From the NCBI GenBank assembly GCA_049424145.1, contig JBMSSC010000001.1, positions 16,017-80,016 on the forward strand: 64,000 nt of DNA, given 5' to 3'. The notes beneath the pieces are model-generated. The model ran no database searches, had not been told where the DNA came from, and saw only the letters and a program-made list of their open reading frames with translations. Positions 26,470-55,504 of the stretch are shown piece after piece. The DNA is from Bdellovibrionia bacterium (GTDB lineage: Bacteria > Bdellovibrionota > UBA1018). The stretch's first letter is position 1. The number at the start of each line of letters is the position of its first letter. The translations under genes were made by a program, and so were the position numbers.

Positions 26470-26716
26470 AATAAGCATTGGGCAAAGTCAGTTCAATGGC
26501 TTGAAGATCGACGCCCAGGAGTCGTCCTTTGGGTCCAATTCTCTCAGACGCATACTGAGACCAGGAGCCGGGTGCCGCACCTAAGTCCAGCATCTTTTGA
26601 GCGGGTTTGAAAACCTTAAAGCGCTCGTCGATCTCTTTGAGCTTAAAGATGGAGCGGGCGACATAGTTTTCCTTCTTTGCTTGGAGAAAATAATAGTCTC
26701 TTGGATCGTACGCCAC
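26468..26716 (-). pseudogene. truncated rlmE' fragment (first 82 codons) created by the tandem duplication
   Basis: Translation is identical to RlmE residues 1-82. A TAA is generated at the duplication junction. The promoter region is retained. Confidence 0.8.
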
Positions 26717-29800: not shown

Positions 29801-30547
29801 CTAAACAATTCGGGCAAAAAACTTTCGAGTCTCCTCAGCCACATAGGCTTCAATGAGTTTGGCGTGAGCTGGGTTGATCCCCCGAAAAACGATTCCGACT
29901 TTGATCTTCTCTTCGGTGTCTGAGGGGTGGGATTTGGGTAGTCGCCTTAAATGCAGCACTTCACCGCAAAGGGTCAGGGTCTCGGATCGGAGGGAAATAC
30001 TCATGCCCTCGATTCGTTGGCCCACGTAAAAGGGCATGCGCTCCTGGTCTTCTGTTAAAAAGGAAAGGCCTCCTGAGCTGATGTCGTAGATCTTCTTTCG
30101 GATGACGGTGGCGGAAGCTCGGGGGTCTACAAACTCAACTCGCAGGACGTAGCCTTGAAGGATGCGAAACCGCTGGTTTTTTCGTCGCTGAGCCCGAAAC
30201 AGGCGCTTGGGAAGGGAGAACTCCAAGTGGGTGAATGAAGTGGAGATGAGCTGGGCTGGAAAAAAAAGAGTGGCTCGCTCCAAGGAGACGTTAAACAAAC
30301 AGCGATCCCCTGCGGCTTGGAGCTTGGGATAGAACTCATCTCGATTGCAATCCAAAGGAGGGGTGGTGAAGATGAGTTTCTTCAATTGGCTCAGTCCCAT
30401 GAAAGAGCAGCGTTTGGGCTCGGGGTGCTCTTGAGTCCAAATGAGGGTGGCAGCGCTAATTTTTACCGCTTCATCAAAGTACTTGATGATTTCAAGCGGG
30501 TCGGTGACTTCGGTGAGTTCATTGGAGTGGCTTTGAGCCTCAGACAA
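29801..30547 (-). CDS. YcgR-like c-di-GMP-binding protein (PilZN-like N-domain + PilZ domain)
   Basis: RxxxR motif (QRRKNQRFR, residues ~121-126) and D-x-S-x-G-G motif (DISSGGLSF). The 248-aa size matches YcgR-type proteins. It overlaps the mreB stop by 8 nt. Confidence 0.7.
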
Positions 30548-31595
30548 TGGTCACCTTTCTGAGCAGGTCCATGTCTTGAAGGGCTTTTACTGAACCACGC
30601 ACCACACAGGTTAATGGATCTTCAGCTAAGGCAACCGGGAGTCCTGTTTTTTCCTTAATCAAGATGTCGAGGTTGGCTAGGAGTGCTCCTCCCCCGGCTA
30701 AGATAATCCCATTATCGACAATATCGGCCGCCAGTTCTGGAGGAGTTCTCTCTAAGGCCGTTTTAATCGTGTCCACCACGGCCGACACAGGCTCAGCAAG
30801 AGCATCTCGGATTTCCTCCGAGTTGACTTCAATGGTTTTAGGTGCCCCACTGATTAGGTCTCGTCCTTTGACTTCGTAGGTTTTCTCCTCTTCAAACGGA
30901 TAGGCGCAGCCAATGGAGAGCTTAATCTGCTCAGCCGTTCGCTCTCCGATCAGAAGTGAGTATTTTCTCTTAATGTAGTTCACGATGGCGTCATCAAACT
31001 TATCGCCTGCGACTCGAACGGATTTTGAGTAAACGATCCCGCCTAGGGAAATCACGGCCACTTCCGTGGTTCCGCCGCCGATATCCACAATCATGTTTCC
31101 GCTCGGTTCTCGAATGGGAAGTCCTGCTCCCAGCGCTGCAGCCATGGGTTCCTCAATGAGGTAGACTTCGCGGGCCCCTGCGGATTGAGCGGATTCTTTC
31201 ACCGCTCGTTTTTCCACCTGAGTGATTCCAAAGGGAATGCAGATGATGATCCTGGGACGAATAAAGGTTCTTCGTTCACTGGATTTATGGATGAAGTACT
31301 TGAGCATCGATTGGGTGACTTCAAAGTCGGCGATCACTCCATCTTTCAGAGGGCGAACGGCTTGGATGGACCCTGGGGTTCGCCCGAGCATGTCTTTGGC
31401 CTCTTTGCCAACGGCAAGTACGCGGGTTTGGCCCCGGGAGTTTCGGTGGATGGCAACCACGGAGGGCTCGTTGATGATGATGCCACGATCCCTTGCGTAA
31501 ACCAGCGTATTTGCGGTTCCTAAGTCAATTGCCAAGTCGTTTGCAAAAAAATCTAACATTTTCTTTAGCATGAATGATTCACCACTTATCACCAC
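30540..31595 (-). CDS. mreB: rod-shape-determining actin homologue MreB
   Basis: The N-terminal region [13 protein letters not shown] resembles MreB, and the protein has an actin/Hsp70-like ATPase fold. Confidence 0.9.
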
Positions 31596-32449
31596 TTATA
31601 ATGACGAATGTGCTCGCCTCGCTCACTGATCTCACTCATCGCCTTCATTCCGACTTCTAAGTGCAGATCGGTGAACTTTTGGAACACCGCTTTTGCCGAC
31701 TTCTGAGTTTTAATTCCGCCTCGTCTTAAGGGAAGGTCCGAAACGAGAAGTAAGGCTCCAATGGGAACTTTACTGGCGAACCCGGCAACAAAGAGCGTGG
31801 CTGATTCCATCTCAATGGCCAAAGCGCGTTCTTCATACAACTGAGCCTTAAATCGTTGATCGAATTCCCAAAAACGATAATCAGTAGTATGAATGACACC
31901 GGTGCGATAATCCAAGTCTTTTTCGACTAAAATCTGAGAAACGAATTTTTGAATTTTAAACGTGGGTAAGGCAGGAACCTGAGGTGGCATGAAGTGCCGG
32001 GAAGCCCCTTCATCGCGGATGGCTGCCGTGGGGATGATGAAGTCCCCGACTTTCAATGAGCGATGCAGGCCTCCACACATTCCTAAGAGCAGGACTGCTG
32101 TGGGGTCTAAGGTGGCCAAAAGCTCGATGATCAAGGCTGCTGTGGGAGAGCCCATGGAAAAGTTGACGATCGACACTCCTGCTTTCTTGCTATGCACCGC
32201 ACCCATGATGGACCCCTGGGTTCGGGACTCTCCTGAAAGTTGAGTGAATCGATTCAGATAGTAGTCAAAATTAGTGAGAATGATCTGCTTTTGAAAGCTT
32301 TCCGGTGGACTACCCGTATAACGCGCCAGCATATCCCGAGCAATTTTATGCTTGTGGGCATTGGTGTAGATTCGATTATTATTTTGAATAATGAATGGAT
32401 TAATAGAAAAATCTTCTGACTTCTTTATTTTACTTTTTTTCTGTTGCAC
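31589..32449 (-). CDS. PNP/UDP-phosphorylase-family (MTA/AMP-nucleosidase-like) protein
   Basis: PNP_UDP_1-like core (…LLGMCGGL…, [12 protein letters not shown]) with a ~70-aa N-terminal extension. It overlaps the mreB start by 7 nt. Confidence 0.6.
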
Positions 32450-32504: not shown

Positions 32505-33851
32505 ATGCGGAGAGTCGTGAAAACATCAGTAGTTGATAAAAAAGGTTTTTTTAGGAGCTTTTTGAGGCTCAGGAAGAGCCGGAGTGGGGCCTTGGCTCTT
32601 TTCTTCGTTTTTTTCTGCTTTTTCTCATCCGACATCCCTCCTTATGCCTTAGCTTCCATTGAGGCCCAGCGCTCTTGGAGCGCAACTTCAGGGGCAAAGT
32701 CCGCGCTTACGAAAGAAAAAGTGGCTCAGGTTTTAGAAAGCTCCGCTCTCATGGCGGAGTTTCCCCAAGAAATGGACCTGGAGGTTCAGCGCTTGGGGAA
32801 AGTCAAAGGGCGATTCCAGTATACGTTTGATCCTAAGCTTCAGCAGGCCATGGAGGGGCTCTTTGACGCCTATGGTCCCGATTATGGGGCCTTCGTCGCC
32901 ATGGATCCTAAAACAGGCCGGATCTTATCTTTGGTGAGTTATTCGCGGTCGGGAAAAATTCGAGAGAACCTAGCTCTAAGAGCAAGCTTTCCTTCGGCCT
33001 CCGTATTTAAAGTCGTCACCGCAGCCGCGGCCATTGAAAAACATCAGATTTCCTCAGAAACGGTGATTCCTACGCAGGGCCGAAATCACACGCTCTACCG
33101 AGGACAGATTTTAAAATCCCAAATCAATCGATGGACTCGCTTCATTACCTTAAAAGAAGCCTTTGCTCACTCCGTTAACTCCGTATTTGGAAAGATCGGG
33201 GCCTTCACTGTGGGCTCCACCGTGCTCAGACAGTACGCCGAACGCTTTGGTTTTAATCACAAAATCCCAGCGGATCTGCCCATTCAGGAAGGTCGAGCCT
33301 TCATTCCTGAAGACCTCTGGGGATTGGCCGAGAGTGCCTCAGGCTTCACACGGGAGAACACCATGAGCCCTCTTCAAGGAGCGCTCATTGCCTCGGCCGT
33401 GGCCAATGATGGGGTCATGATGGAGCCCTACGTGGTGGAGTCCATTGTGAAGCTTGCAGGCCATGAGAACGAGACTCAAGGACCGCCACTTTATCTGGCT
33501 GAGCCTAAGGTGTCCACCGTGGCGATGGATCCTGAGACGGCAAGCGAGATTCGGGATCTGATGAAAGAAACCGTTCTTCACGGAACATCACGCGGTTCGT
33601 TTCGAGGATTTTTCAAGAAAGACTTCTCCTTTTTGGATGTGGGAGGTAAAACCGGCTCTCTTACGGGCTTAAGTCCAAAGGGTAAGTACGATTGGTTTGT
33701 GGGCTATGCTCAATCCGGATCTCATCGGATTGCCGTCTCGGCGTTAACGATTTCAGAAAAACAATGGCGCGTGAAGTCCTCGTACTTAGCGCGTAGGGCT
33801 ATTGAGAATTATTTCCGGACCTCCGTTCATCATTCCTTGGCAGAAAGATAG
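32505..33851 (+). CDS. penicillin-binding protein, transpeptidase domain (class-B-like, short)
   Basis: N-terminal membrane anchor. SxxK (SASVFK), SxN (SVNSVF) and KTG (GGKTGS) active-site motifs. 448 aa. Confidence 0.7.
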   Translation: MRRVVKTSVVDKKGFFRSFLRLRKSRSGALALFFVFFCFFSSDIPPYALASIEAQRSWSATSGAKSALTKEKVAQVLESSALMAEFPQEMDLEVQRLGKVKGRFQYTFDPKLQQAMEGLFDAYGPDYGAFVAMDPKTGRILSLVSYSRSGKIRENLALRASFPSASVFKVVTAAAAIEKHQISSETVIPTQGRNHTLYRGQILKSQINRWTRFITLKEAFAHSVNSVFGKIGAFTVGSTVLRQYAERFGFNHKIPADLPIQEGRAFIPEDLWGLAESASGFTRENTMSPLQGALIASAVANDGVMMEPYVVESIVKLAGHENETQGPPLYLAEPKVSTVAMDPETASEIRDLMKETVLHGTSRGSFRGFFKKDFSFLDVGGKTGSLTGLSPKGKYDWFVGYAQSGSHRIAVSALTISEKQWRVKSSYLARRAIENYFRTSVHHSLAER

Positions 33852-33855
33852 TTTT

Positions 33856-34779
33856 TTGACCACGCTTCATCAACCGATTTTAGTGGAACCCATTGTTCAG
33901 GCCCTTTTGGAGCCCTTTCGGCGCTTACCTCCTGATGCTCCTCCTCATTTTATTTTGGATTGCACACTGGGAGGAGGAGGGCACAGTGCCGCTCTTTTGA
34001 ATGCGCTGGCTTGTGATCCCCAGTGCTCCCGCCATGGGCTGTTAGCCGTGGATCAGGATCAAGACGCCGTGGATCGAGCTCATCAGCGCTTTGCTGAGTG
34101 GATTGCCCAAGGAAAAATGGAGATTCGTCACGGTCGATTTGCCGATGCTTTTGATCTTTTTGCAGGCAAGCGAGTCCTAGGACTCTTGGCGGATCTGGGG
34201 TTTTCCAGCGATCAGCTGAATTTAGCAGATCGAGGGCTGAGCTTTCAGAGCAAGGGTCCGTTGGACATGAGGCTGGATCCGAGTCAGGGGGAGAGCGCCC
34301 AAGAGCTTCTCAGGCGAGTGAGCCAAAACGAACTGGAGAGGATCCTAGAGGAGTTTGGTGAAGAGCGGTTTGCCCGTCGGATTGCAGGGGCCATTGTGGA
34401 GAGAAGAAGGTTAGGAGAGCTCCCCACCACCACTCAAGCCCTCGTGGAGGTGATCGTTCGTGCCATTCCCCCGGGAGCCAGGCACGGGCGGATTCACGTT
34501 GCAACTCGAACCTTCCAAGCGCTTCGAATTGCGGTGAACCAGGAGTTAGAACAACTCGATCAGCTCTTAAGTCGAGGTCTTCCTCAGGTGGTGGTTGGAG
34601 GGCGTGCGGCCATCATCAGTTTTCACTCACTTGAGGATCGCCGGGTGAAGGTTTACTTCAAACAAGAATCTCAGTTTCAGAGCCTGACGAAAAAGCCGAT
34701 TCAGCCCGATGAGGCTGAGATTCGATCAAATTCCCGAGCTCGAAGTGCGAAGCTCAGGATCGCAGAACGAGTCGTGTGA
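33856..34779 (+). CDS. rsmH: 16S rRNA (cytosine1402-N4)-methyltransferase RsmH (MraW)
   Basis: HQPILVEPIVQAL…ILDCTLGGGGHS…FHSLEDRRVK. Probable TTG start at 33856. The track ORF from 33802 overlaps the PBP gene. Confidence 0.85.
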   Translation: MTTLHQPILVEPIVQALLEPFRRLPPDAPPHFILDCTLGGGGHSAALLNALACDPQCSRHGLLAVDQDQDAVDRAHQRFAEWIAQGKMEIRHGRFADAFDLFAGKRVLGLLADLGFSSDQLNLADRGLSFQSKGPLDMRLDPSQGESAQELLRRVSQNELERILEEFGEERFARRIAGAIVERRRLGELPTTTQALVEVIVRAIPPGARHGRIHVATRTFQALRIAVNQELEQLDQLLSRGLPQVVVGGRAAIISFHSLEDRRVKVYFKQESQFQSLTKKPIQPDEAEIRSNSRARSAKLRIAERVV

Positions 34780-34868
34780 CAAGTTTGGGCCATTGAGCGC
34801 GCCAAGAGGGGGTGTGGTTTTTTTCCCTTCGTTCCTCTTTTTTCTGCTTTAGGGACTAAGAAGGGTGG

Positions 34869-35237
34869 GTGGTTTGGGGTGGGCTCTTGCGCTTCCGTGA
34901 TGAGACGGAGATTGCGCCATTTTTGGGTTCAGATAGAATAAAACTCATGGTGAGCAGAATTCTTCCAATCTGGGTGGTCTTTGCTTTAGTGGTTTTTGCA
35001 ATTGGGAGCGTGTGGATTCGACTCCATATCATTCGAACCACCTATGCCATCAATGAGATGCATAGAAAAATGGAGCAAACCAAGCAAGATTCAGAACTGT
35101 TGCAAGTGAAGCTCTCGAGTCTGAAGTCTCCGAAGCATTTAGAAGCCTTGGCTCGGCGGAAGTTTGGTCTTCTGCAGCCGCGAATGGATCAGGTCATTCG
35201 CATGACCCAGTCGAAAGAAGCCCTTCATGGAACCTAA
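34869..35237 (+). CDS. ftsL: FtsL-like division protein (single TM + coiled coil)
   Basis: Small bitopic protein in the canonical slot between rsmH and ftsI. TM helix ILPIWVVFALVVFAIGSVWIRL followed by heptad-like sequence. The start may be the ATG at 34938. Confidence 0.5.
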   Translation: MVWGGLLRFRDETEIAPFLGSDRIKLMVSRILPIWVVFALVVFAIGSVWIRLHIIRTTYAINEMHRKMEQTKQDSELLQVKLSSLKSPKHLEALARRKFGLLQPRMDQVIRMTQSKEALHGT

Positions 35238-37353
35238 GGTGGAGGCTCAGATTTTCCCTGATGATTCGATCCGAAAACGCTTGGTGGTCACCTTAGCCAT
35301 TGGGGCGGTCTTCACCTGCTTGATCCTCGGGCGTGCTATTTTCATTCAGCTGATGAAACATCCCCGGTTAGAAGCCATGGCTTCTCGTCAGTACCATGCT
35401 CAATCCTTGGTTCAGCCCCGTCGAGGCGTCATTTTCGATCGAAACGGGGAGCGTCTTGCCGTGAGTGTGGATTCCTATAGTTTAGCAGCCAATCCTACTA
35501 AGATCCGAAAGCGCTGGATCTTAGCGCCCCTTTTAGCCAAGGCACTTCGCTCGAGCTCCTCACGATTGATGGAGAAGCTCAGTGAGCCTCGGGAGTTTGT
35601 TTGGATCAAACGGCAGTTGAGCGAGGCGGATCTCAGGGCGTTTAAAAAACTCTCACGCGTTGAATCGAATGATGATCTGCTCGAAGGCTTGTGGTTAGTC
35701 AAGGAAAGTAAGCGAGTTTACCCCCATGCCTCCCTTGCCGCGCATGTTTTAGGCGACGTAAATGTGGATTCAGATGGATTAGAAGGAGTTGAGCTTTGGC
35801 AAAATGAGCGATTGAAGGGAAAAATCCTCAGTGTTTCGGCCATTAAAGATGCCTTGGGTCGGCCAACTTTCATTGATGCAAAAGCCGCATCTCAACTCAC
35901 CGATGGCCAAAGTGTGAGTCTGACCTTGGACTCGGTTCTTCAGTATGAAATTGAGAGACTCCTCTCTGAGGCAGTTCGAAAAACGGGAGCCAAAGGGGGA
36001 TCCGTGATGGTGATGGATGCCCAATCCGGTGACCTGTTGGCTTTGGCCAATGAGCCCACGTTTGATCCCAATCAAAAGGGAATTCCCCTGGATCGTCGCC
36101 GAAACCGCGTGTTGACCGATGGCTACGAGCCGGGATCCACGATGAAACCCTTACTTCTTGCTGCGGCCCTCTCAAGTGGAATGAAGCTCAGTGATGAGTT
36201 GTGGGGAGAAAAAGGGAGTTTCATTTTACAAAAACGGAGGATTTCAGAAGCCGAGGCGCATGAAAAATTTGAGTGGATCAGCTTAAAAAAAATCATCCAA
36301 GTCTCCAGCAATGTGGGAGCTGCAAAGTTGGCCTTAAAAGTCGGAGCAGAGCGTTACTTGCAGGTTTTAAGAGCCTTTGGCTTGGGCGCAAAAACCGGAT
36401 CAGGGTTTCCGGGTGAGATTTCAGGCCGAATCCCGCCCAAAAAAGATTGGCAGCCTTTAACGCTAGCAAACATTGGCTTTGGTCAGGGCCTGCTGGTGAC
36501 CCCGATGCAGATGCTGAAGGCCTATGCCGTGTTTGCCAATGGGGGCTTTTTAGTGGAGCCCCATTTGATCCAAGCAGAGGCTCAGTCCAAGGATGAAAAA
36601 CCAGGGGCTCTTGCGCTGTCCCCTTTAAAAAAGCAGGTTCTCTCGCCTCAGGTCACTCAAGCTGTGGTGGAGGCCTTGGAGTCCGTCACTCAAAGCGGAG
36701 GCACGGCACAAAAAGCGGCAATGCCTGGCTACCGAATTGCGGGAAAGACAGGAACCGCTCAGGTGGTCGATCCTCACTCCGGGAAATACTCCCATGATCA
36801 ATACGTGTCCTCGTTCATTGGTTTTCCGGTGGGTTTGGACTCTTCGCTGGTGATCTTCACAGCCTTAAATGAGCCCAAAGGCGTCTACTATGCATCCGAA
36901 ACAGCAGTGCCCTTGTTTAAAGAGGTGCTCAGTGCGCTCATTCATCGCTACAGCTTGCCTGCGGAGCACGAGCCTGAGCTGTCGGTGAAGCCCGTGAAGT
37001 TGGCCAGTGCCTCTCTGTCTGCTCTGCGTTCATCCGGGGGGATGACCCAGGATGAACTTCATTGGACCCAAGCCTCGGTGCAGCAGGCGTCGTTGACCAA
37101 GGGGGACTCGCTGAGCTTAGGCGGATCTCTGCCTCGAGTCGTTCCCGTGCCCCAGACTGAGGACGTCAAACTGAGTCAATGGGTCATGCCCGATCTCCAA
37201 GGGCTTTCACCCAAAGAGGTGCTGGAAGTGCTTCAGGGCTATCCCTTTGCCCTGGAGATGAAGGGGATGGGGATGGTTGCTTCACAGACGCCGATGGCCG
37301 GTCAGCGGCTCTCCAAAAGAAGTCGAGTTCGACTGGTGTTTTCAGAACCTTGA
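35227..37353 (+). CDS. ftsI: peptidoglycan D,D-transpeptidase FtsI (PBP3) with a C-terminal PASTA domain
   Basis: PBP dimerisation and transpeptidase domains (SxxK STMKP, SSN, KTGTA). The last ~65 aa (VMPDLQGLSPKEVLEVLQG…) look like a PASTA domain. Confidence 0.85.
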   Translation: MEPKVEAQIFPDDSIRKRLVVTLAIGAVFTCLILGRAIFIQLMKHPRLEAMASRQYHAQSLVQPRRGVIFDRNGERLAVSVDSYSLAANPTKIRKRWILAPLLAKALRSSSSRLMEKLSEPREFVWIKRQLSEADLRAFKKLSRVESNDDLLEGLWLVKESKRVYPHASLAAHVLGDVNVDSDGLEGVELWQNERLKGKILSVSAIKDALGRPTFIDAKAASQLTDGQSVSLTLDSVLQYEIERLLSEAVRKTGAKGGSVMVMDAQSGDLLALANEPTFDPNQKGIPLDRRRNRVLTDGYEPGSTMKPLLLAAALSSGMKLSDELWGEKGSFILQKRRISEAEAHEKFEWISLKKIIQVSSNVGAAKLALKVGAERYLQVLRAFGLGAKTGSGFPGEISGRIPPKKDWQPLTLANIGFGQGLLVTPMQMLKAYAVFANGGFLVEPHLIQAEAQSKDEKPGALALSPLKKQVLSPQVTQAVVEALESVTQSGGTAQKAAMPGYRIAGKTGTAQVVDPHSGKYSHDQYVSSFIGFPVGLDSSLVIFTALNEPKGVYYASETAVPLFKEVLSALIHRYSLPAEHEPELSVKPVKLASASLSALRSSGGMTQDELHWTQASVQQASLTKGDSLSLGGSLPRVVPVPQTEDVKLSQWVMPDLQGLSPKEVLEVLQGYPFALEMKGMGMVASQTPMAGQRLSKRSRVRLVFSEP

Positions 37354-37403
37354 TGCTAGGCCTAAGAGGAGCGGTAGTCCTCTTGCCCGTCTCAAGGAGA
37401 TTT

Positions 37404-38915
37404 ATGCTGAAACCTCAATTGACTCAACTCACGTTAGTTCAACTCCTGGCGCTCTTACCGAAAGAAATCCTTTCTCCTCAAGATCCCAGCAGGCAAGCCC
37501 TTTTGCATGGCTCTGCTCAGGTCACAGGCGTGACCTCTGATTCAAGAGAAGTGAAGCCAGGCAGTGTGTTTGTGGCCATTTGTGGGGGCACTCAGGATGG
37601 ACATCAATTCATCGATTTAGCTTTAGAAAAAGGCGCCGTTTTTGTGGTCGGTGAGCAACCCATGCCCTCTTCGCAGCTCAAGGGAGTCTATCTCCAGGTT
37701 TCCGATAGTAGGGAGGCCTTAGCAGCCTTGGCCGCTCAATTTTTTCATCATCCCTCCGATGGGCTTTTGGTGCTCGGAGTCACCGGAACGAGTGGAAAAA
37801 CCACCACCACTTTTATTCTGGAGTCCATTTTAGCGGCAGCGGGGCATCGTGTGGGAATCATTGGAACCATTCACTTTCGTGTGGGCAACCAAGTCCTTCC
37901 TTCCACGCACACCACCCCGGGCGCAGCAGAGCTTCAAGGTCTTTTGGCGGAGATGAAAAACGCAGGCTGCACCGCCGTGGTGATGGAGGTGTCCTCTCAT
38001 GCTTTAAAGCAAAAACGAGTGGCATCCGTGGCTTTTGATGGCGTGGTGTTTACTAATCTCTCGCCTGAGCACTTGGATTTTCATCCTGACTTGGAGGATT
38101 ACTTTCAGTCCAAGGCCCTTTTGTTCACTGAGTGCATGAAGTTTTCTCAGTCTCGGGGGAAAAAGCCTGTCATGGCCATCAATTCAGAAGATGAACACGG
38201 CCATCGCCTCCTTCGCACTCTTGCCGCTCCCCACAGTGCGTTTTTACCTCAGCACGCTTTGCAGGTGAGCCCCAGTGGGATCTCAGGGCAGCTGGGTCCT
38301 GTGAAAGTGGAGTCGTCGTTTACGGGGCAATTTAATGGGTCCAACCTATCAGCTGCCGTGACGCTTGCTTTGGCCCTCCAAATCTCCATCCCCTGCATTG
38401 AGCGGGGAATCCGAGACCTCAAAGGGGTCCCTGGGCGTTTAGAGCGAGTCCCCAATGCTCGGGATATTCATGTTTGGGTGGATTATGCTCATAAGCCCGA
38501 TGCTTTAGAGAAGGTGCTCAAAACGTTATCTCTTTTGCGGGGGGGAAACCGCCTCATCACGGTTTTTGGGTGTGGCGGGGATCGAGACCGAAAAAAACGG
38601 CCGCTCATGGGGAGGATCGCAGCTGAAAATTCGGATTGGGTCTTTGTGACTTCGGATAACCCTCGAACCGAAGATCCTCAGGCCATTATGGATGAGATTT
38701 TGGCGGGAATGACGGGGCATTCGCATGTGAGTGTTGAGGTGGATCGAAAAACGGCCATTTTAAAAGCCGCTTGCTTGGCCCGACCCGGAGATCTAGTGGT
38801 GATTGCAGGAAAAGGCCATGAAACCTATCAAATCATGGGCACAACACGGGTGCACTTTGATGATCGAGAGGTGGCAGCCTGGGCCTTTGAGCAAAAAGAG
38901 CCAACCCAGGGCTGA
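37404..38915 (+). CDS. murE: UDP-N-acetylmuramoyl-L-alanyl-D-glutamate--2,6-diaminopimelate ligase
   Basis: Mur ligase P-loop GVTGTSGKTTT. DNPR motif (SDNPRTEDP) typical of MurE. I chose the ATG at 37404 rather than the track start at 37179, which overlaps ftsI. Confidence 0.9.
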   Translation: MLKPQLTQLTLVQLLALLPKEILSPQDPSRQALLHGSAQVTGVTSDSREVKPGSVFVAICGGTQDGHQFIDLALEKGAVFVVGEQPMPSSQLKGVYLQVSDSREALAALAAQFFHHPSDGLLVLGVTGTSGKTTTTFILESILAAAGHRVGIIGTIHFRVGNQVLPSTHTTPGAAELQGLLAEMKNAGCTAVVMEVSSHALKQKRVASVAFDGVVFTNLSPEHLDFHPDLEDYFQSKALLFTECMKFSQSRGKKPVMAINSEDEHGHRLLRTLAAPHSAFLPQHALQVSPSGISGQLGPVKVESSFTGQFNGSNLSAAVTLALALQISIPCIERGIRDLKGVPGRLERVPNARDIHVWVDYAHKPDALEKVLKTLSLLRGGNRLITVFGCGGDRDRKKRPLMGRIAAENSDWVFVTSDNPRTEDPQAIMDEILAGMTGHSHVSVEVDRKTAILKAACLARPGDLVVIAGKGHETYQIMGTTRVHFDDREVAAWAFEQKEPTQG

Positions 38916-38992
38916 GGCGTTGGGGACTTCAGCAGACCCGCACGTGTGGTAAACTCTTGACACCGGCTTTTAAAAATCTGTAGCATTCGGAG

Positions 38993-40069
38993 ATGCTCTT
39001 TCAATTTCTCTATCCGCTTCATGCGAAGTACTCAGTGCTTCATGTGTTTAAGTACATCACCTTTCGGAGTTTCGGTGCCAGCATCACGAGTCTTTTGATC
39101 TGCATGCTCATGGGCCCCTCCTTCATTCGCTTCCTTCAGAGAAAGCAAATGGGGCAGTCCATTCGGGATGACGGACCCAAAAGCCATCTCTCGAAAAAAG
39201 GTACACCCACGATGGGAGGGGGGTTAATTCTCTTTGGGATCGTTCTGCCGACTCTGCTTTGGTCGGATCTGGGAAATAAGAGCGTATGGATTGCTCTAGT
39301 GACCACGATTTTGTTTGGTCTCATTGGGTATGTTGACGATTACCGAAAAGTGATTCAAAAAAACTCCAAGGGCCTCTCCAGTCGTCAGAAGATTGTGAGT
39401 CAAACGCTGGTGGCCTTGGTGGCCGCTTACGTGATTTACGTCACTCGCGATACGCCCCCGGTTTTAAAGTTCCCGTTCTTTAAGGATTGGTCTTTTTATC
39501 TGGGTCTATTTTTTGTGCCCTTTGCTACGTTCGTGATCGTGGGTGCTTCCAATGCGGTCAACCTAACCGATGGTCTCGATGGCCTTGCTGTGGGTCCCAC
39601 CATCACCACTTCAGTCACGTTTCTCGTGCTCGCTTATTGCGCAGGGCATGTGAAGATTGCCGAGTACCTTCAAATTCCCTATGTGCCCGGGGCAGGGGAG
39701 TTAGCCGTATTCTGTGGCTCAGTTGCGGCTTCGTGCTAGGGCATTTTATGGATTAATACCTATCCTGCTCAAGTTTTTATGGGGGATGTGGGGTCGTTGG
39801 CTTTAGGTGCAGCCTTGGCTGTCGTTGCCGTGATCACAAAAAATGAAATCTTGCTTGCACTTTGTGGGGGAATTTTCGTAATTGAAGCCCTCTCGGTGAT
39901 GGCACAGGTGACGTCTTTTAAGATGACAGGGAAAAGGGTCTTAAGAATGGCGCCCATTCATCATCATTTTGAGCTAAAAGGGTGGGCTGAGCCTAAAATT
40001 ATTGTGAGATTTTGGATCATCTCGATTTTATTGGCCCTATTTACTCTCTCGACTTTGAAATTAAGGTAG
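38993..40069 (+). CDS. mraY: phospho-N-acetylmuramoyl-pentapeptide transferase MraY, interrupted by an in-frame TAG at 39737-39739 (possible pseudogene or base-call error)
   Basis: Track ORFs 38993..39739 and 39779..40069 are in the same frame. Codon-by-codon reading gives …[35 protein letters not shown]…, which is co-linear with the E. coli MraY motif …[26 protein letters not shown]…. The stop sits at the conserved Leu. Confidence 0.7.
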
Positions 40070-40084
40070 AGGAAACGTGAATTC

Positions 40085-41470
40085 ATGATGAGCAAGTATC
40101 AAGGTAAAAAAGTTTTAATTGTTGGCTTCGGCATCTCAGGGGTCGCCGTTGCCAAGTACATGTGTAAAAACGGCGCCCGAGTGCTGGTCGCCGATTCGAA
40201 GCAAAAAAATGAGCTGGCCGATTCCTTGGACGCCTGTGCCGGGCTTCCCATCGAGTATGAGCTCGGGTATCCCGCGAATAAACCGTTTCCAGTTGCCGAT
40301 CTCATTGTCCTGAGTCCAGGAGTGCCTCTGAGCATCAAAGGTTTAGAGGAAGCTCGTCAGAGGCAGACCCCGATCACCAATGAGATTGAGCTTGCGGCTT
40401 TAGAGATTCAGCAGCCAATTTTGGCTATCACGGGAACCAATGGGAAAACCACCACCACGACGCTCATCGGTGAGATGTTCAAGGCCGATGGAAAATCAGT
40501 ATTTGTGGGAGGAAACATTGGACAGCCCCTCTTGGATTACGTGACTCAGGGTCAAAAAGCCGATGTGGTGGTCGCTGAGCTGTCGAGCTTTCAACTCGAG
40601 CTCACCGAGAATTTAAAAGTCGCAGGGGCCGTTTTTACCAATCTCGAAGAGGATCACCTAGATCGCTACGGCGACCTGCACTCGTATGGAAACGCCAAGA
40701 AGCGTTTGCTTCGAGCCTGCAATTCACAGAGCTTTGTGGTGCTCAACTGGGACAACCCCAATGTGGCTCAGTTTGAAGCAGAATCGCCCGGTCAAGTGCT
40801 CTGGTTTATGAAGGGTGATCCCATGAAAGTGGGTGGCACTTTTGCGGAGAACTTTCGGGGAGCCTATTTCAACTCTCTGACGAAGAAGGTCATTTTTAGA
40901 AGCAAGGGCCAAGAATCGGTCTTTGATCTCTCCTCCTTTCGATTGTTTGGAGAGCATAATAAAGAGAATCTCATGGCCGCTATTTGCTTGGCTAAGGCTA
41001 TGGACGTGAGCGATGGAGCCATTCAATCGGTCATTCAGCAGTTCAAAGGAGTGAATCATCGCCTGGAGTTTGTGCGAAAAAAAGATGGGGTCTTTTTCTT
41101 CAATGACTCCAAAGGCACGAACGTCATGAGTGTTCAAAAGAGCTTGGCGTCGTTTTCCTCAAACCCGATCATTTTAATTGCAGGGGGGAAGGATAAGAAC
41201 GCAGATTTCACTCCTCTGGTGGACCTGGTGAAGAGGAAGTGTAAGATTTTAGTCCTCTTAGGTGAGGCGAAAGAAAAAATCAATCGAGCCATTGGTGATT
41301 ACGCTGAAACCTACCTGGTGGGTACTTTCGAGGAGGCAATTCTGCTCAGCTATCAAAAGTCCAGAAGCGGAGACATCATTCTTCTGTCCCCGGGTTGCGC
41401 AAGCTATGATATGTTTAAAAACTACGAAGAGCGGGGCAATTATTTCAAGAAACTCGTCTCCCAGCTTTAA
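40085..41470 (+). CDS. murD: UDP-N-acetylmuramoylalanine--D-glutamate ligase
   Basis: N-terminal Rossmann region (KVLIVGFGISG), P-loop GTNGKTTTT, MurD-type C-terminal domain. Confidence 0.9.
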   Translation: MMSKYQGKKVLIVGFGISGVAVAKYMCKNGARVLVADSKQKNELADSLDACAGLPIEYELGYPANKPFPVADLIVLSPGVPLSIKGLEEARQRQTPITNEIELAALEIQQPILAITGTNGKTTTTTLIGEMFKADGKSVFVGGNIGQPLLDYVTQGQKADVVVAELSSFQLELTENLKVAGAVFTNLEEDHLDRYGDLHSYGNAKKRLLRACNSQSFVVLNWDNPNVAQFEAESPGQVLWFMKGDPMKVGGTFAENFRGAYFNSLTKKVIFRSKGQESVFDLSSFRLFGEHNKENLMAAICLAKAMDVSDGAIQSVIQQFKGVNHRLEFVRKKDGVFFFNDSKGTNVMSVQKSLASFSSNPIILIAGGKDKNADFTPLVDLVKRKCKILVLLGEAKEKINRAIGDYAETYLVGTFEEAILLSYQKSRSGDIILLSPGCASYDMFKNYEERGNYFKKLVSQL

Positions 41471-41587
41471 GAGGAGAAGCGCTCAAGGGTTTGCAGGAGG
41501 AGGGACTCTCTGACCCACTTCAAACAGAGCTTTTGGCCGAATCGGAGTTGGAAAATCGACTGGAAGCTTTTTTTTCTAGTTCTAGCC

Positions 41588-42646
41588 ATGGTCGTTTTTG
41601 GACTCATCATGGTTTACAGCTCCTCGTTCATCTTAGCGCAGGAAAGAAGTGGGAACGGCTTTGCTTTGATTCGCAAGCAGCTTCTTTTTGCCATTTTAGG
41701 TTTTTTAGCCATGGCCGGTGCAATTCAGATGGACTATGGCCTCTGGAGGAAGCACGCTCCCTCCGTCTTAGCCGGTGCGGTTTTTCTTCTCTTCCTGGTG
41801 CTCTTGCCCGGCGTGGGGCATAAGGTGGGAGGAGCGCAGCGGTGGTTGAAGTTGGGTCCCGTTCGTTTTCAGCCAGCGGAGCTGGCGAAGTTTGCGATGA
41901 TCTTCTTTGGGGCCCGTTTTTTAGAGAGCCCACTGAGCTGGTCTCGCTTTTCCGATCCGAAGCGAATCGGAGAGGCCTTATTGTTTCTGCCTGCTTTTTT
42001 TCTGCTCCTCATTCAGCCTGATTTCGGAACAACGGTGATTATCGCCTTAGTTTTGTTTTTTATGGTCTTTGTTTCCGGGGTGCGTCCTCGAGCCCTGTTT
42101 GCTGTTTTTTTTCCCATCGCAGTGGGTGCGCTTCTGGTGGCCTTTGGAAGTGAGTACCGAAGGGCTCGTATCCGAACGTTTTGGGACCCTTGGCAAGATC
42201 CCGCAGGCAAGGGGTTTCAAATCCTTCAGTCCTTTGTGGGCCTCCATAATGGAGGGTTGTTTGGGGTGGGTTTAGGCAACAGTCGGGAGAAGCTCTTTTA
42301 TCTGCCTGAGGCTCACAATGATTTTATCTTCTCGGTGATTGGGGAGGAGTTGGGTTTTCTGGGGGTTTTTACCGTTGTTTTTGCTTATCTCTACTTGATG
42401 TTTAAGGGACTCAATATTGCCTGGAACTGCCAACGGAAAAAGCAAGATCGTTTTGGGATGCTTCTGGCCACAGGAATTACCCTGGCGCTGAGTTTTCAGG
42501 GGTTTGTCAATGCGGCTGTCGTGTTTGGGCTCTTACCCACCAAGGGCCTTGCCTTGCCGTTTTTAAGCTACGGGGGCTCCGCTCTGGTGGTGGATTTATT
42601 TGCGGTGGGCGTTTTACTCAGTATTGCTCGGAGTACGGAAGGATAG
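41588..42646 (+). CDS. ftsW: peptidoglycan glycosyltransferase FtsW (SEDS family)
   Basis: SEDS motifs (…IQPDFGT…, NDFIFSVIGEELGFLG, PTKGLALPFLSYGGSA). The reading frame is open back to 41471, so the true start may be a non-ATG codon upstream. Confidence 0.85.
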   Translation: MVVFGLIMVYSSSFILAQERSGNGFALIRKQLLFAILGFLAMAGAIQMDYGLWRKHAPSVLAGAVFLLFLVLLPGVGHKVGGAQRWLKLGPVRFQPAELAKFAMIFFGARFLESPLSWSRFSDPKRIGEALLFLPAFFLLLIQPDFGTTVIIALVLFFMVFVSGVRPRALFAVFFPIAVGALLVAFGSEYRRARIRTFWDPWQDPAGKGFQILQSFVGLHNGGLFGVGLGNSREKLFYLPEAHNDFIFSVIGEELGFLGVFTVVFAYLYLMFKGLNIAWNCQRKKQDRFGMLLATGITLALSFQGFVNAAVVFGLLPTKGLALPFLSYGGSALVVDLFAVGVLLSIARSTEG

Positions 42647-42655
42647 AGGGCCCAG

Positions 42656-43753
42656 ATGCAAACGCTTCAGCAAAAAAAGTTATTGGGGGCAGGCGGGGGA
42701 ACCGGAGGCCATGTTCTAGCCGGGGGGGCCATTGCAGAGGGGTGGGCTCAAAAGGCCCAAAGCTCCTCCAGTGTGCTCTTTGTGGGAGCGCGGGGGGGGA
42801 TTGAGGAAAGACTCGTGCCAAAAACCCCGTTTGCGCTCCGATTGCTTCGCGTGGGTTCTTTGAATCGCGTGAAGGTGACGCGTCAGCTGAAGACGCTGTT
42901 TGAGATCCCCTGGGCAATGGTGGTGTCGCTTCAGATTCTATTTCAGTTTCGACCCCACGCTGTGCTGGGCGTGGGAGGGTATAGCTCTGGACCGTTGGTG
43001 CTGATGGCGGCGCTTCTCAAAAAGCTGGGTCTGTTAAATTGCCAGGTGGCGATCTTGGAGCAAAACTCGGTGGTGGGCTTGACCAATCGTCTTTTAGGGC
43101 GCGTGGTGGATTCGGTTTTCACGGCTTTTCCGGGGATGGAGCCACAGTTTTTGGGTAAAAAAGTTATTTTTACGGGCAATCCCATTCGATCATCGATGAA
43201 ACAGCTGCCTTCTGCGCCGAGAGATCCCTTTACGATCTTTGTTTTTGGGGGCAGTCAGGGGGCCAGAGGAGTGAATCGTTTAGTGTTAGAGGCTCTGCCC
43301 GAACTGAAGCAAGTGAAACGTTCCATTCGTTTCATTCATCAAAGTGGGCAGGCGGATTTTGAGGAGGTTTTAAAAGCGCATCAAGCCGCAGGCATGGACT
43401 CTTGCGTGGAGAAGTTCATTGAAGACATGCCCAGTGCCTATGCTCAGGCGTCCCTTCTGGTCTGTCGTTCAGGAGCCTCCACATTGGCCGAGATTGCAGC
43501 CGTAGGACGAGCTGCGATTTTAGTTCCATTGCCGACAGCAGCCGATGATCATCAGAGTAAAAATGCCTGTGCCTATGTTCAAGCCGGTGCTGCTCAACTG
43601 ATGGATCAGAGAGTGGGCTCCGGAGCGAGTCTGGCTCAGTTGATTCAGGATCTCATGACTCGTCCGGATCAGATTGCAGCCATGGAGCGACGTGTGCTTG
43701 AATTTTATCGTCCACATGCGGCTCGGGATATTGTAGAGCATCTGTATGTTTAG
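42656..43753 (+). CDS. murG: UDP-N-acetylglucosamine--N-acetylmuramyl-(pentapeptide) pyrophosphoryl-undecaprenol GlcNAc transferase
   Basis: GT28 N-terminal G-loop (GGTGGHVLAGGAIAE) and a C-terminal domain with the sequence SGASTLAEIAAVG. Confidence 0.9.
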   Translation: MQTLQQKKLLGAGGGTGGHVLAGGAIAEGWAQKAQSSSSVLFVGARGGIEERLVPKTPFALRLLRVGSLNRVKVTRQLKTLFEIPWAMVVSLQILFQFRPHAVLGVGGYSSGPLVLMAALLKKLGLLNCQVAILEQNSVVGLTNRLLGRVVDSVFTAFPGMEPQFLGKKVIFTGNPIRSSMKQLPSAPRDPFTIFVFGGSQGARGVNRLVLEALPELKQVKRSIRFIHQSGQADFEEVLKAHQAAGMDSCVEKFIEDMPSAYAQASLLVCRSGASTLAEIAAVGRAAILVPLPTAADDHQSKNACAYVQAGAAQLMDQRVGSGASLAQLIQDLMTRPDQIAAMERRVLEFYRPHAARDIVEHLYV

Positions 43754-45152
43754 AAAAGAAGAAACCTGGCTTCATTTTGTAGGAATCGGTGGCATTGGCA
43801 TGAGTGGGATTGCCGAGGTGTTCTTAAACCAGGGATATCAAGTCAGCGGATCTGATTGGAGTGAGTCAGAAACCACCAAGCGCCTAGCCCAGTTAGGTGC
43901 GCGGGTCTTTCAAGGCCACAGTAAGGACCACGTGGGTTCAGCCAACGTGGTGGTCATTTCTTCAGCCGTGAAGCCGGATAATCCAGAGGTGGTGGAGGCC
44001 AAGGCCAGGCGGATTCCTATTATTCCTCGAGCAGAAATGTTGGGTGAGTTGATGAGAGGTAAGGTGGGTATTGCCGTGGCGGGAAGTCATGGAAAAACCA
44101 CCACCACCTCTCTTTTATCCACCGTCTTAACCTCAGCTGGGCTTGATCCGACGCTTGTGATTGGCGGCAAAGTGGACTCCTTGGGGGGCAATGCCAAGCT
44201 GGGTCGAGGGGAAATTGTGGTGGCTGAAGCCGATGAGAGCGATGGTTCGTTCCTGCATCTGCCTGCGACCATCGGAATTATTACTAATATTGACAACGAT
44301 CATTTGGATCACTTTGGGAGCCTCAGTGCTGTAGAAGACGCGTTTGTCGAGCTGGTCAGTCAGCTGCCTTTTTATGGTCTGGCTGTGATTTGTGGAGATG
44401 ATCCAGGAGTCAAGCGCTGCATGAGTCGGTGGAGTAAGCCGTATCAAACCTATGGACTCTCTGAGGAGTGTGATCTGTTTGCGCGCAAGATTGAGTACCA
44501 GGGGTTAGGCTCCACGTTTGAAGTGGTGAGGAAAGAACCGAGCGGGGCCCACCAATGCCTCGGTCAGTTCCAGCTCAAGGTGCCCGGGCAGCACAATGTT
44601 CTTAACGCTCTGGCTTGCATTTTAGTGGCCCTAAAGCTTGAGGTGGAGATCCCTAAAATTGCTCAGGGTTTAGCTGAGTTTCAAGGAGTGAAGCGCCGAT
44701 TCGACATTCGTTACTCCGATGAGCTGCGGCATCGGGCGATTGTGGATGATTACGCTCACCATCCCACTGAGCTGATGGCTACTTTAGAGGCGGCTCGGCG
44801 ATTTTGGAAAGGACGAATCATCAGTGTGTTTCAGCCGCATCGTTACAGTCGAACACTTCACTGTCATGATGGGTTTTTGTCCTCCTTCGTTCGATCGGAT
44901 GTGGTGATTTTAACGGATATCTACCCCGCAGGGGAGGAGCCCATTCCTGGAGTGAGTGCTCAGGGCTTGGCCGAGGAGATTCAACGCTTGGCTCGGGCGG
45001 ATCAAGTTGTGCTCTATGGGGGGGATTTAAAGAACACAGAAACCCTATTAAGTGGGCTTTTTAAGGATGGGGATTTAATCCTGTGTTTAGGGGCTGGATC
45101 CATAACGAAGCTTCCCGATCAGCTGACAGCCTTGCGGATGAAATCCGGATGA
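43746..45152 (+). CDS. murC: UDP-N-acetylmuramate--L-alanine ligase
   Basis: HFVGIGGIGMSGIAE N-terminus, P-loop GSHGKTTTT, Mur ligase middle and C-terminal domains. Confidence 0.9.
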   Translation: MFRKEETWLHFVGIGGIGMSGIAEVFLNQGYQVSGSDWSESETTKRLAQLGARVFQGHSKDHVGSANVVVISSAVKPDNPEVVEAKARRIPIIPRAEMLGELMRGKVGIAVAGSHGKTTTTSLLSTVLTSAGLDPTLVIGGKVDSLGGNAKLGRGEIVVAEADESDGSFLHLPATIGIITNIDNDHLDHFGSLSAVEDAFVELVSQLPFYGLAVICGDDPGVKRCMSRWSKPYQTYGLSEECDLFARKIEYQGLGSTFEVVRKEPSGAHQCLGQFQLKVPGQHNVLNALACILVALKLEVEIPKIAQGLAEFQGVKRRFDIRYSDELRHRAIVDDYAHHPTELMATLEAARRFWKGRIISVFQPHRYSRTLHCHDGFLSSFVRSDVVILTDIYPAGEEPIPGVSAQGLAEEIQRLARADQVVLYGGDLKNTETLLSGLFKDGDLILCLGAGSITKLPDQLTALRMKSG

Positions 45153-46099
45153 CTTCGTGGGATGAGAGTCGCTTTTGGAAAAATCCGGAGGGTTTTCGGG
45201 GAGAGCTCAGGTGGAATGAGCCGCTGTCCAAGCACACGTATTATCGGATTGGTGGACCGGCTCGGCTACTTGCTATACCGACTTCAGTTTCTGATCTGCA
45301 GTGGCTTGCTCAAGGGATTGAAAACTCAGGGGTTCGCTTTTTAGTCTTGGGTTTGGGCTCCAACGTTTTAGCCAGTGACGAGGGGTTTGCAGGGCTCGTT
45401 ATTCGGTTGCATCGACTGAATTTAAAAATTGAACCTCAATTCCAAAAAGACGACCCAGGCCTCGGTGCAACCGAGATTCTAACAGGAGCAAGTGTGGCCA
45501 ATTCCACGCTTTTAAGGCGAGCCGCTCAAGAGGGCTGGGGTGGGCTTGAGTTTCTCTCGGGGGTACCGGGTTCCGTAGGTGGTGCTGTGGTGATGAATGC
45601 AGGCACGCATCTGGGTGAGGCTCAAAGTCGGATTCGCAAGGTAGTGGCCTACCGTTTAGGGGAGTTTCAATCGGAGCCTGAGGTTTATGTGGGCGATCAG
45701 CTTCGCTTTGAGTATCGCTCGCATCGGTTTCTTCCGGTAGACTCCGTGGTGTACTCCGTGGTTTGGGAAGTGCAGAGGGATGAGCCAGCGCTCGTGCAGC
45801 AGCGGATCGATGAGATGCTTCGCAGACGAAAAAGCACTCAGCCCGTGGACTACCCCTCCTGCGGAAGTGTCTTTAAAAACCCAAAAGAATCTGGACTCTC
45901 GGCTTGGCAAGTGGTGGATCGTTTGGGTTTAAGAGGCCATCAAATTGGACAGGCTCAGTTTTCTCCCAAGCACAGCAATTTTATTATTAATCTCGGAGGT
46001 GCTCAAGCCAAAGATGTCCGAGCTCTCATTGAATTGGCCAAGATGCGGGCTCAGACGGAGCTTGGCATTACGCTTCAACAAGAAGTGATCTATATCTAG
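45149..46099 (+). CDS. murB: UDP-N-acetylenolpyruvoylglucosamine reductase
   Basis: FAD-binding PCMH domain (YRIGGPARLL, LGLGSNVL) and C-terminal MurB domain. The start overlaps the murC stop (ATGA at 45149-45152). Confidence 0.9.
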   Translation: MTSWDESRFWKNPEGFRGELRWNEPLSKHTYYRIGGPARLLAIPTSVSDLQWLAQGIENSGVRFLVLGLGSNVLASDEGFAGLVIRLHRLNLKIEPQFQKDDPGLGATEILTGASVANSTLLRRAAQEGWGGLEFLSGVPGSVGGAVVMNAGTHLGEAQSRIRKVVAYRLGEFQSEPEVYVGDQLRFEYRSHRFLPVDSVVYSVVWEVQRDEPALVQQRIDEMLRRRKSTQPVDYPSCGSVFKNPKESGLSAWQVVDRLGLRGHQIGQAQFSPKHSNFIINLGGAQAKDVRALIELAKMRAQTELGITLQQEVIYI

Positions 46100-46103
46100 C
46101 TTT

Positions 46104-47495
46104 TTATTCTTTTGAGAATAAAACCTCTTTCACCTCTTTGGGTTGTACGCCTGAGGCTTGAATCAAAGCGGCTCTGAGTTTTTTTGAGGTAGCAAGCACT
46201 GAGATGGCAAGTTGATCGGGTTTTAAGAAGTGGTTCAGCGCCTGATTGACCTGAGGGAGAGTGAGCTTCCTGAGTTCAGAGGCAAACGACTGCATGAAGC
46301 CTGTTGGAAGCTTGAGAGTTTTCTCCAAGATCTTATTTTCAACCCGCTTTTTAGGCGTGTTGTAGGTGAATCCCGAGCTCTGGATGAGGCTTTGCTGGGC
46401 AAACTCAAACTGCTGGGGCGTGAGTCCATGCTCTTTCAGCTGGGAAATGAGCTGAAGGGAGTGTTTGAGGGCTGCTGCTGCATCCGCTTGGGCAGGGTAC
46501 AGGTGCACGATCCATGAGCGGGGTTCTGTTCCGTGTCGAAATTGGCTGGAAACCCCATAGCTCCAGCCGCGCTTCACTCGAATCTCCTCCATTAAAGTGG
46601 AGGAAAAGGAGGGTCCGCCAAAGGCATGATTGCCCAAGTAAAGGCTGAAGAAATCAGGATCCGTCATCTTCACTCCAATTTGTCCGATGTGGATCTGGGT
46701 TTGAGTGCGATCCGGTTTATCGATGATTAAAAGTCGTCTTGTTTGTGCGTTCTCAGGGCGCCCCAGGGGAGTGGTGAGTCCTAAAGATGCTGTTGTGTTT
46801 GGGGTTTGAGGGGTAGGCGTACTGAGGAGTTTTTGCAGACTCTCGCCTAGGGTTTTTGCCCAAGCTTGGATGGGTTCCACAGGAGAGTCGCCTGAGCCGA
46901 GAATGAAAAGAGAGTCCTCTTTTAAAAGGGCCCGGTGATGAGCGAGCACTTGCTCTCTTGTCATGGATTCAATGTCTGGGGTTCTTCCCAAAACGGAGCG
47001 GCCGTAGGGGTGGTCTTGAAAGAGGAATTGAGTGAAGCTTCGTGTGGCCAAGCTGGAGTCGTGGCCTTTTTCCTCTTGGATTCCCGCGATGATTTCAGCC
47101 TTGAGTTTATCGATCTCCAGTTGTGGGAAAGAGGGCTCCGTCAGGAGTTCGCGTAGAAGGCTTAAGAAAGGGTTCAGTTGACTCGAGAGGACAGCTCCCC
47201 TGAAAATCAATGCCTCAGCTCGGGTCTCCACCTCAAGCTTGGCTCCCCATTGATCTAAAGCTTGATCGATTTGTGCTTTATTCTTCGAGCGTGTGCCCCG
47301 AAGGAGCATCTCCCCCATGAAGTTGGTGAGACCCATTTGCCCCTGGGGGTCTTTCACCGATCCATGGTTGAGCACCACATTGAGGTAGACTAGAGGTAAA
47401 TTTGAATTCTTCTCAAAGTCGACTTCAAGAGCGTGGCCTAAAGTGGCGCTCAGGAAACAGAGATATCCCAGTAGTGTCAGCACCCAGGGTTTCAT
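46104..47495 (-). CDS. M16-family peptidase, non-catalytic-type subunit (no HxxEH)
   Basis: Signal peptide (LLGYLCFLSATLGHA). Pitrilysin-like fold, but the zinc-binding inverted motif is absent (…MGLTNFMGEMLLRGT…). It overlaps the upstream M16 gene by 4 nt. Confidence 0.8.
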   Translation of the reverse strand: MKPWVLTLLGYLCFLSATLGHALEVDFEKNSNLPLVYLNVVLNHGSVKDPQGQMGLTNFMGEMLLRGTRSKNKAQIDQALDQWGAKLEVETRAEALIFRGAVLSSQLNPFLSLLRELLTEPSFPQLEIDKLKAEIIAGIQEEKGHDSSLATRSFTQFLFQDHPYGRSVLGRTPDIESMTREQVLAHHRALLKEDSLFILGSGDSPVEPIQAWAKTLGESLQKLLSTPTPQTPNTTASLGLTTPLGRPENAQTRRLLIIDKPDRTQTQIHIGQIGVKMTDPDFFSLYLGNHAFGGPSFSSTLMEEIRVKRGWSYGVSSQFRHGTEPRSWIVHLYPAQADAAAALKHSLQLISQLKEHGLTPQQFEFAQQSLIQSSGFTYNTPKKRVENKILEKTLKLPTGFMQSFASELRKLTLPQVNQALNHFLKPDQLAISVLATSKKLRAALIQASGVQPKEVKEVLFSKE

Positions 47496-48922: not shown

Positions 48923-49015
48923 GATGGCCTTTTTGCACCTCTTTTGGGTCCGTTCTCTGATCTCCCTAAGATATGCTCTCGCACATCTTTTGTCCAACAG
49001 GTAGAATCAAGACCT

Positions 49016-49843: not shown

Positions 49844-49947
49844 AATTTAAGAGAGAGGAAATTTTTGCCTATCAATCCTGTGTAAACGAAGAAATCCTGC
49901 CGGGGAAGTGGTTTTGAAAATTCTAATACAGAAGGGTAATTTAAAAT

Positions 49948-55439: not shown

Positions 55440-55471
55440 ATTGAAAGTGATTTAGATCAAGTCTTGTTTTC

Positions 55472-55504
55472 GGGTAGATCCTTTTGGGTCTGCCCTTTCT
55501 TTTG
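55472..55504 (+). terminator. rho-independent terminator after the first S8 protease
   Basis: gggtagatcc-tttt-gggtctgccc forms a 10-bp stem (2 G·U pairs), followed by tttcttttg. Confidence 0.6.

Follow-up and report, generated by a model that had tools for sequence, protein, structure and literature searches.

What occupies the place of mreC and mreD beside mreB in Bdellovibrionota, and could the answer bear on how the MreB cytoskeleton is controlled? The question is raised by a stretch of 64,000 nucleotides (64 kb; "the window") from an uncultured, predatory-type Bdellovibrionia bacterium (GenBank assembly GCA_049424145.1, contig JBMSSC010000001.1, positions 16,017 to 80,016 of the forward strand), in which mreB lies between amn, a predicted adenosine monophosphate (AMP) nucleosidase gene, and pilZ, which encodes a two-domain protein with a predicted site for cyclic diguanylate (c-di-GMP). 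An earlier note, prepared from the DNA letters, had described these three genes and suggested that MreB filaments might be regulated directly by c-di-GMP. Comparison with related loci identified amn-mreB-pilZ as a conserved operon-like unit of Bdellovibrionota that is arranged head-to-head with the division and cell-wall (dcw) cluster. Judged from the sequence evidence, direct control of MreB by c-di-GMP is plausible.

The gene trio and the distribution of the mreB-pilZ linkage

All three open reading frames (ORFs) are present on the minus strand where the earlier note had placed them, and their identities are backed by Pfam and NCBIfam models. The features of the trio are as follows.

31589..32449, minus strand: amn, short-form AMP nucleosidase with a PNP_UDP_1 fold (NF005500 and Pfam), first gene of the operon
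30540..31571, minus strand: mreB, 343 residues, starting at ATG 31571; the mechanical ORF reaches GTG 31595
30540..30557, minus strand: overlap of the mreB stop and the pilZ start, ATTGTCTGA, with AAGGTGA at 30551-30557 in the final mreB codons
29801..30547, minus strand: pilZ, 248 residues, YcgR-N-like plus PilZ domains, predicted c-di-GMP receptor, TTG start

The amn product passed the equivalog cut-off of NF005500 (329.9 bits against 264), its substrate being a prediction, and matched Pfam PNP_UDP_1 (E 3e-27), with a TIGR01721 score slightly under the cut-off (299.3 bits against 307.2). MreB was matched by PF06723 (E 3e-153, 509.9 bits), NF010539 (544 bits, cut-off 293) and TIGR00904 (529 bits, cut-off 365.75). 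The conserved N-terminal sequence of MreB, MLKKMLDFF, is encoded from ATG 31571, which is preceded by GGTGA 7 nt upstream, and the true spacer between the amn TGA and the mreB ATG is 17 nt. Of the two overlapping junctions described in the earlier note, the one between amn and mreB is therefore not upheld; it is an ORF-calling artefact, because the first GTG was taken as the start. The 8-nt overlap between mreB and pilZ is genuine, with the TTG start of pilZ within ATTGTCTGA, and is likely to be a translational-coupling junction. A consensus scan, which provides weak evidence, found no sigma-70-like promoter in the 3' end of mreB, where the earlier note had considered that pilZ might carry a promoter of its own, and no terminator-like site between the two genes. 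An Rfam search of the window returned no riboswitch and no other RNA family. The reported absence of mreC and mreD downstream was also borne out, as the ORFs of at least 150 residues across the window yielded no match to an MreC or MreD domain.

Loci for comparison were obtained from a genome scan with the window MreB protein as query, of which the best 80 loci were classified with hidden Markov models, and contig-lookup loci, found by exact-protein lookups of PilZ family representatives, were added. The linkage of mreB and pilZ, for which the earlier note had proposed a phylogenetic check, holds across two Bdellovibrionota lineages: besides the window, nine loci from the genome scan and eight from contig lookup have pilZ directly after mreB. 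The genome scan recovered amn-mreB-pilZ or mreB-pilZ in a close Oligoflexia metagenome-assembled genome (MAG; L002) and in seven Bacteriovoracaceae/Halobacteriovoraceae genomes (L005-L010, L014), and the loci tabulated from contig lookup with pilZ after mreB are L001, L082-L086 and L089-L091. Nine of the 12 sampled PilZ family representatives are mreB-linked, the gene lying immediately 3' of mreB for P0002, P0004, P0005, P0007, P0011, P0013, P0025 and P0081, and the linked representatives mostly have amn upstream, ftsJ downstream and dcw genes divergent. The remaining three (P0050, P0120 and P0129) score lowest and are located away from mreB. Additionally, the gene immediately 5' of mreB is amn in the window and in 12 further loci. 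Among the classified mreB loci, mreB-mreC was found in 55, nearly all from other phyla, and PilZ and MreC were never found together after mreB.

The mreB/pilZ junction ranges from -8 to about +30 nt. Within the window's lineage, most members carry ATTGTCTGA or a close variant of it at the junction: the overlap is the same in L001, L082, L083, L085, L090 and L091, and L089 and L002 have TAA or GTT variants of it; the Bacteriovoracaceae junction is a gap of 4-30 nt. The tripeptide forced by the overlap gives an [ML]S[ED] N-terminus, which is shared by 47 of the 151 top PilZ representatives. Two loci with amn-mreB have other genes 3' of mreB, with ftsJ directly adjacent in L003 (5986-7661) and a convergent EVE-domain gene in L004 (5989-7477). 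Their MreB is 89% identical to that of the window at an Amn identity of 75%, at which PilZ-linked relatives show 95-97%.

The PilZ protein family

Relatives of the PilZ protein were collected by an exhaustive profile search, a word-indexed protein search having given just 2-4. The profile search returned 475 representatives at E <= 1e-3, and among the 150 listed nearly all are about 245 residues long with a full-length match. The window protein matches Pfam PilZ (PF07238) over residues 120-237 (34.9 bits against a cut-off of 22.5), as do 82 of 82 family members, and the RxxxR and DxSxGG motifs mentioned in the earlier note were both located.

30170..30187, minus strand: RRxxxR motif (RRKNQR, residues 121-126), aligned with RRRDPR of MrkH, predicted c-di-GMP site
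30068..30085, minus strand: DxSxxG motif (DISSGG, residues 155-160), aligned with DISDGG of MrkH, predicted c-di-GMP site

These motifs are invariant or nearly so. R121, R122, R126 and G160 are invariant in the 82-sequence family alignment, and D155, S157, W37, F95, F110 and P113 are kept in at least 90% of its members; among the top representatives, [RK]RxxxR is found in 150 of 151 and D/NxSxxG in 143 of 151. In Bacteriovoracaceae the proteins align to each half of the profile and keep [RK]RxxxR and DxSxxG, with an insertion of 25-40 residues between the halves. The family is basic (median isoelectric point (pI) 9.1; C-domain pI 10.3).

The earlier description of the protein as PilZN plus PilZ is supported for the PilZ domain and for the two-barrel fold, and its N-domain is missed by the sequence models: neither PF07317 (YcgR-N) nor PF12945 (PilZNR) matched the window protein at E up to 0.1, and PF07317 matched none of the 82 family members and PF12945 one, weakly (E 0.059). 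An AlphaFold2 run on a 2-sequence alignment reached a predicted local distance difference test (pLDDT) score of 42, and an 82-sequence alignment was used instead, on which the model reached pLDDT 92.9. This predicted structure has a two-barrel fold with a YcgR-N-like N-domain, and full-length Foldseek matches were obtained to MrkH (top), PP4397, YcgR, MotI and VCA0042 (E 1e-12 to 1e-8). The family profile searched against Protein Data Bank (PDB) sequences also matched MrkH best, over both domains and with the motifs aligned (E 1.8e-11). Fold and motifs thus point to a YcgR-type architecture with an intact predicted c-di-GMP site, in a protein that, by the sequence models searched, is outside all curated YcgR sequence families. 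The relatives form a distinct family of proteins of about 245 residues in which a YcgR-N-like barrel is joined to a PilZ barrel and the RRxxxR and DxSxxG motifs are intact. The conservation of the family and its confidently predicted fold exclude a chance ORF or a pseudogene. The gene for P0050, a more distant member that is not beside mreB (L087, 4168-5753; L088, 2689-4274), overlaps the end of an unannotated 283-residue gene downstream of uracil phosphoribosyltransferase, phosphoribosyltransferase and GHMP-kinase genes.

Possible control of MreB by c-di-GMP and the alternatives

The best explanation of the locus as a whole, which we advance tentatively and with somewhat less than even confidence, is that pilZ encodes a coupled c-di-GMP receptor acting on MreB or on an MreB-dependent machine. 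In this explanation amn, mreB and pilZ would be co-transcribed and pilZ would be translationally coupled to mreB, so that the sensor would be produced alongside MreB. The PilZ protein is predicted from its motifs to bind c-di-GMP, and the bound form would dock either on filaments of MreB or on a machine that depends on MreB (the adjacent elongasome or a gliding apparatus), by which the c-di-GMP level, differing between the non-growing attack phase and growth or changing upon surface contact, would be coupled to MreB-dependent activity. The more specific proposal, in which the PilZ protein would bind MreB under the gating of c-di-GMP and switch the sole MreB of these predatory-lineage bacteria between states, for example elongasome growth and a non-growing or gliding attack state, is rather doubtful. 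The position of pilZ beside a penicillin-binding protein (PBP) gene and the dcw genes favors a cell-wall or morphogenesis output, and the role of MreB in the gliding of related bacteria would also allow a motility output. The Bdellovibrionota life cycle alternates between non-growing hunting and filamentous growth, and the known targets of c-di-GMP include motors, secretion, adhesins and transcription. In Bdellovibrio, c-di-GMP gates the switches between hunting and growth (PMC3271064).

Several observations weigh against this explanation. L003 and L004 keep amn-mreB without pilZ, which is therefore dispensable in them. The block also contains ftsJ and amn, which have no obvious functional tie to MreB, and synteny can mislead. 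Both the contact between the PilZ protein and MreB and the binding of c-di-GMP are predictions. Additionally, pilZ evolves faster than any other gene of the block, next to a nearly frozen MreB: at the same loci, identity of relatives to the window proteins is 94-99% for MreB, 74-83% for Amn and 31-40% for PilZ, and relatives show 51-72% for FtsJ, 51-59% for RsmH and 54-63% for RibD_C. Rapid divergence of PilZ beside a near-invariant MreB is not what would be expected of a tight conserved interface. A PilZ-contact patch on MreB was also sought in the substitutions of L003 and L004, which are scattered and conservative and reveal no clear patch. Only three residues mark the PilZ-linked MreBs, namely D28, I290 and K308 (13 of 13); nearly all mreC-linked and Bdellovibrio-type MreBs have G, V and E/R at these positions, and at position 308 the lysine reverses the charge of the canonical E. 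These residues are a weak lead to a possible interface and do not form a clear patch.

~31488-31490, 30702-30704 and 30648-30650, minus strand: codons of MreB D28, I290 and K308

The PilZ protein may instead be a genuine c-di-GMP effector with another target, such as a flagellar stator or rotor, a type IV pilus or a gliding motor, as are YcgR, FlgZ and MotI, with its place after mreB reflecting inherited synteny and convenient co-expression without functional contact. We consider this somewhat unlikely. It would agree with the nearest structures, which include the flagellar brakes and clutches PP4397, MotI and YcgR, with the name YcgR given to the homologue P0002 by its JGI source, with the loss of pilZ from L003 and L004, with the unrelated contexts of more distant family members and with the much faster evolution of PilZ than of MreB. 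However, no flagellar, pilus or gliding genes were found near the locus, either in the window or in its relatives, the overlap junction has been retained over deep divergence, and the protein is unmatched by PF07317 and PF12945. The likeness to MrkH, which is the best match by profile and by structure, raises instead a c-di-GMP-dependent transcription regulator of its own operon and/or of the divergent dcw and PBP genes, and the basic character of the family and the nearby short divergent promoter region of 55 bp between amn and the PBP gene would suit such a role. Basic charge is common in PilZ domains generally, however, it would be unusual for a transcription factor to be coupled in translation to a structural protein of very high abundance, and no repeated operator-like element was noticed, although no search was aimed at one; a regulator of this kind is unlikely, and it and the action on another motor are the main alternatives.

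The earlier note had raised the possibility of a second mreBCD locus, as Bdellovibrio has two MreB paralogues with distinct roles; the window MreB would then be a specialized second MreB with its own c-di-GMP regulator, in a cell whose canonical mreBCD elsewhere serves housekeeping. Some evidence is consistent with such a paralogue: both mreB genes of B. bacteriovorus are essential (PMC6985089), and a neighbor-joining tree, which carries no support values, unites the PilZ-linked MreBs in one clade, sister to the Bdellovibrio/Pseudobdellovibrionaceae MreB clade, which also lacks mreC, and one Bdellovibrionota MAG (L039) retains mreB-mreC-mreD-pbp2-rodA. A 2026 genome paper, however, reports a single mreB in Peredibacter, Bacteriovorax and Micavibrio and describes Bdellovibrionota mreB as lying outside the mreC operon, with no mention of PilZ (PMC13147790). 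Among the best 80 loci, amn-mreB-pilZ was the only mreB locus type recovered from Bacteriovoracaceae genomes, which contributed no second mreB locus, and the 94-99% conservation of MreB suits an essential main copy. Since a single mreB is reported in relatives and one locus type was recovered there, the window MreB probably serves the cell as its main MreB and is not an accessory paralogue. The paralogue framing is the least supported reading, and we consider it quite unlikely.

Returning to a coupled receptor that would act on MreB, comparison with known systems separates it from each of the nearest precedents. The c-di-GMP-gated flagellar brakes and clutches YcgR of E. coli, PP4397/FlgZ-type proteins of Pseudomonas and MotI/DgrA of B. 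subtilis are 11-18% identical to the PilZ protein; unlike them, it has an N-domain missed by PF07317 and PF12945, and its gene is joined to mreB beside the dcw cluster and not to flagellar genes. MrkH of Klebsiella pneumoniae is alike in its two-domain profile match, aligned motifs and basic character at an identity of only about 16-17%, and its gene adjoins its fimbrial target operon, whereas pilZ adjoins mreB and the likeness is one of sequence and fold. The outputs of proteins with the YcgR architecture are unrelated to each other and include a flagellar brake for YcgR and MotI and transcription activation for MrkH. Relative to the canonical mreBCD(-pbp2-rodA) operon, the window MreB is orthologous and 65-71% identical to mreC-linked MreBs of neighboring phyla, but its gene is followed by pilZ and preceded by an AMP nucleosidase gene, with no mreC or mreD. 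Bdellovibrio bacteriovorus MreB1 and MreB2 are from the same phylum, likewise uncoupled from mreCD and in a sister clade (PMC6985089; PMC13147790). Bacteriovoracia with pilZ-linked mreB reportedly have a single mreB, in contrast to the two of Bdellovibrio, and a Bdellovibrio-type locus (L046) has a DAO-family flavin adenine dinucleotide (FAD) oxidoreductase gene upstream and sigma, anti-sigma and kinase-like genes downstream, with no amn or pilZ.

The gene families involved are known, and it has already been reported that mreB is separated from mreCD in Bdellovibrionota. The apparent novelty is that MreB is paired, in a conserved and putatively translationally coupled arrangement, with a dedicated family of YcgR-like c-di-GMP receptors. 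A literature search combining MreB with PilZ, YcgR, c-di-GMP and AMP nucleosidase found no such operon or PilZ-MreB interaction, although a mention in Fenton 2010 or Rotem 2016 is still possible, and in the literature searched no c-di-GMP receptor was reported to act directly on MreB. The linkage reveals what replaced mreCD beside mreB in Bdellovibrionota and offers a concrete lead for c-di-GMP acting on the bacterial cytoskeleton. If the proposal is true, the PilZ protein would become the first second-messenger receptor found to act directly on MreB, in effect a YcgR of the actin cytoskeleton.

Genomic surroundings

The genes divergent from amn are the PBP gene and the dcw block that it opens.

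32505..33851, plus strand: transpeptidase-only PBP, 448 residues (Pfam Transpeptidase, E 2e-43; partial pbp2_mrdA match), divergent, opening the dcw block
33802..51336, plus strand: dcw cluster (rsmH, ftsL, ftsI, murE, mraY, murD, ftsW, murG, murC, murB, ftsQ-like, ftsZ; Pfam)

The PBP neighbor is also present in L002, L090, L091 and the 10.7-kb contig carrying P0081, and the shorter L089 is without it. In L090 (5756-7986) and L091 (5626-7985) the transpeptidase-only PBP gene (about 420-450 residues) adjoins a separate GT51 (Transgly) gene, and the pair looks like a split class A PBP. The dcw block of the window is broken by two minus-strand M16 peptidase genes (46104-48997), and no ftsA separates the ftsQ-like gene (POTRA_1) from the ftsZ that comes directly after it (48944-51336). 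In the window (37179-40085), as in L090 and L091, murE is directly followed by mraY with no murF. The mraY ORF of the window has 248 residues (38993-39739) compared to 358 in L090 and L091, and a frameshift or assembly error may therefore be present. A defence-system reading of the locus was considered unlikely, as the whole block consists of housekeeping cell-wall genes.

Downstream of pilZ lies a convergent RCC1-repeat gene within a 3231-bp tandem duplication, followed by ftsJ/rlmE and a RibD_C gene. Because ftsJ follows pilZ in several relatives (within about 35 nt in L001, L082, L084-L086 and L089), the RCC1 gene is taken to be an insertion specific to this genome. The two copies of the duplication are 100% identical over 3231 bp (23239-26469 and 26470-29700), and the duplication either arose very recently or was created by the assembly. 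Each copy carries a 785-residue RCC1-repeat gene (24085-26442 and 27316-29673, plus strand) and the initial 247 nt of ftsJ/rlmE, whose full gene lies at 22844-23485 on the minus strand and whose fragment lies at 26468-26716. Elsewhere in the window, two tandem paralogous S8 subtilase genes (54021-57020) each encode a fervidolysin-like prodomain, and a 197-residue small Ras/Arf-like GTPase, possibly MglA-like, is encoded beside recR and dnaX (57573-58166, minus strand).

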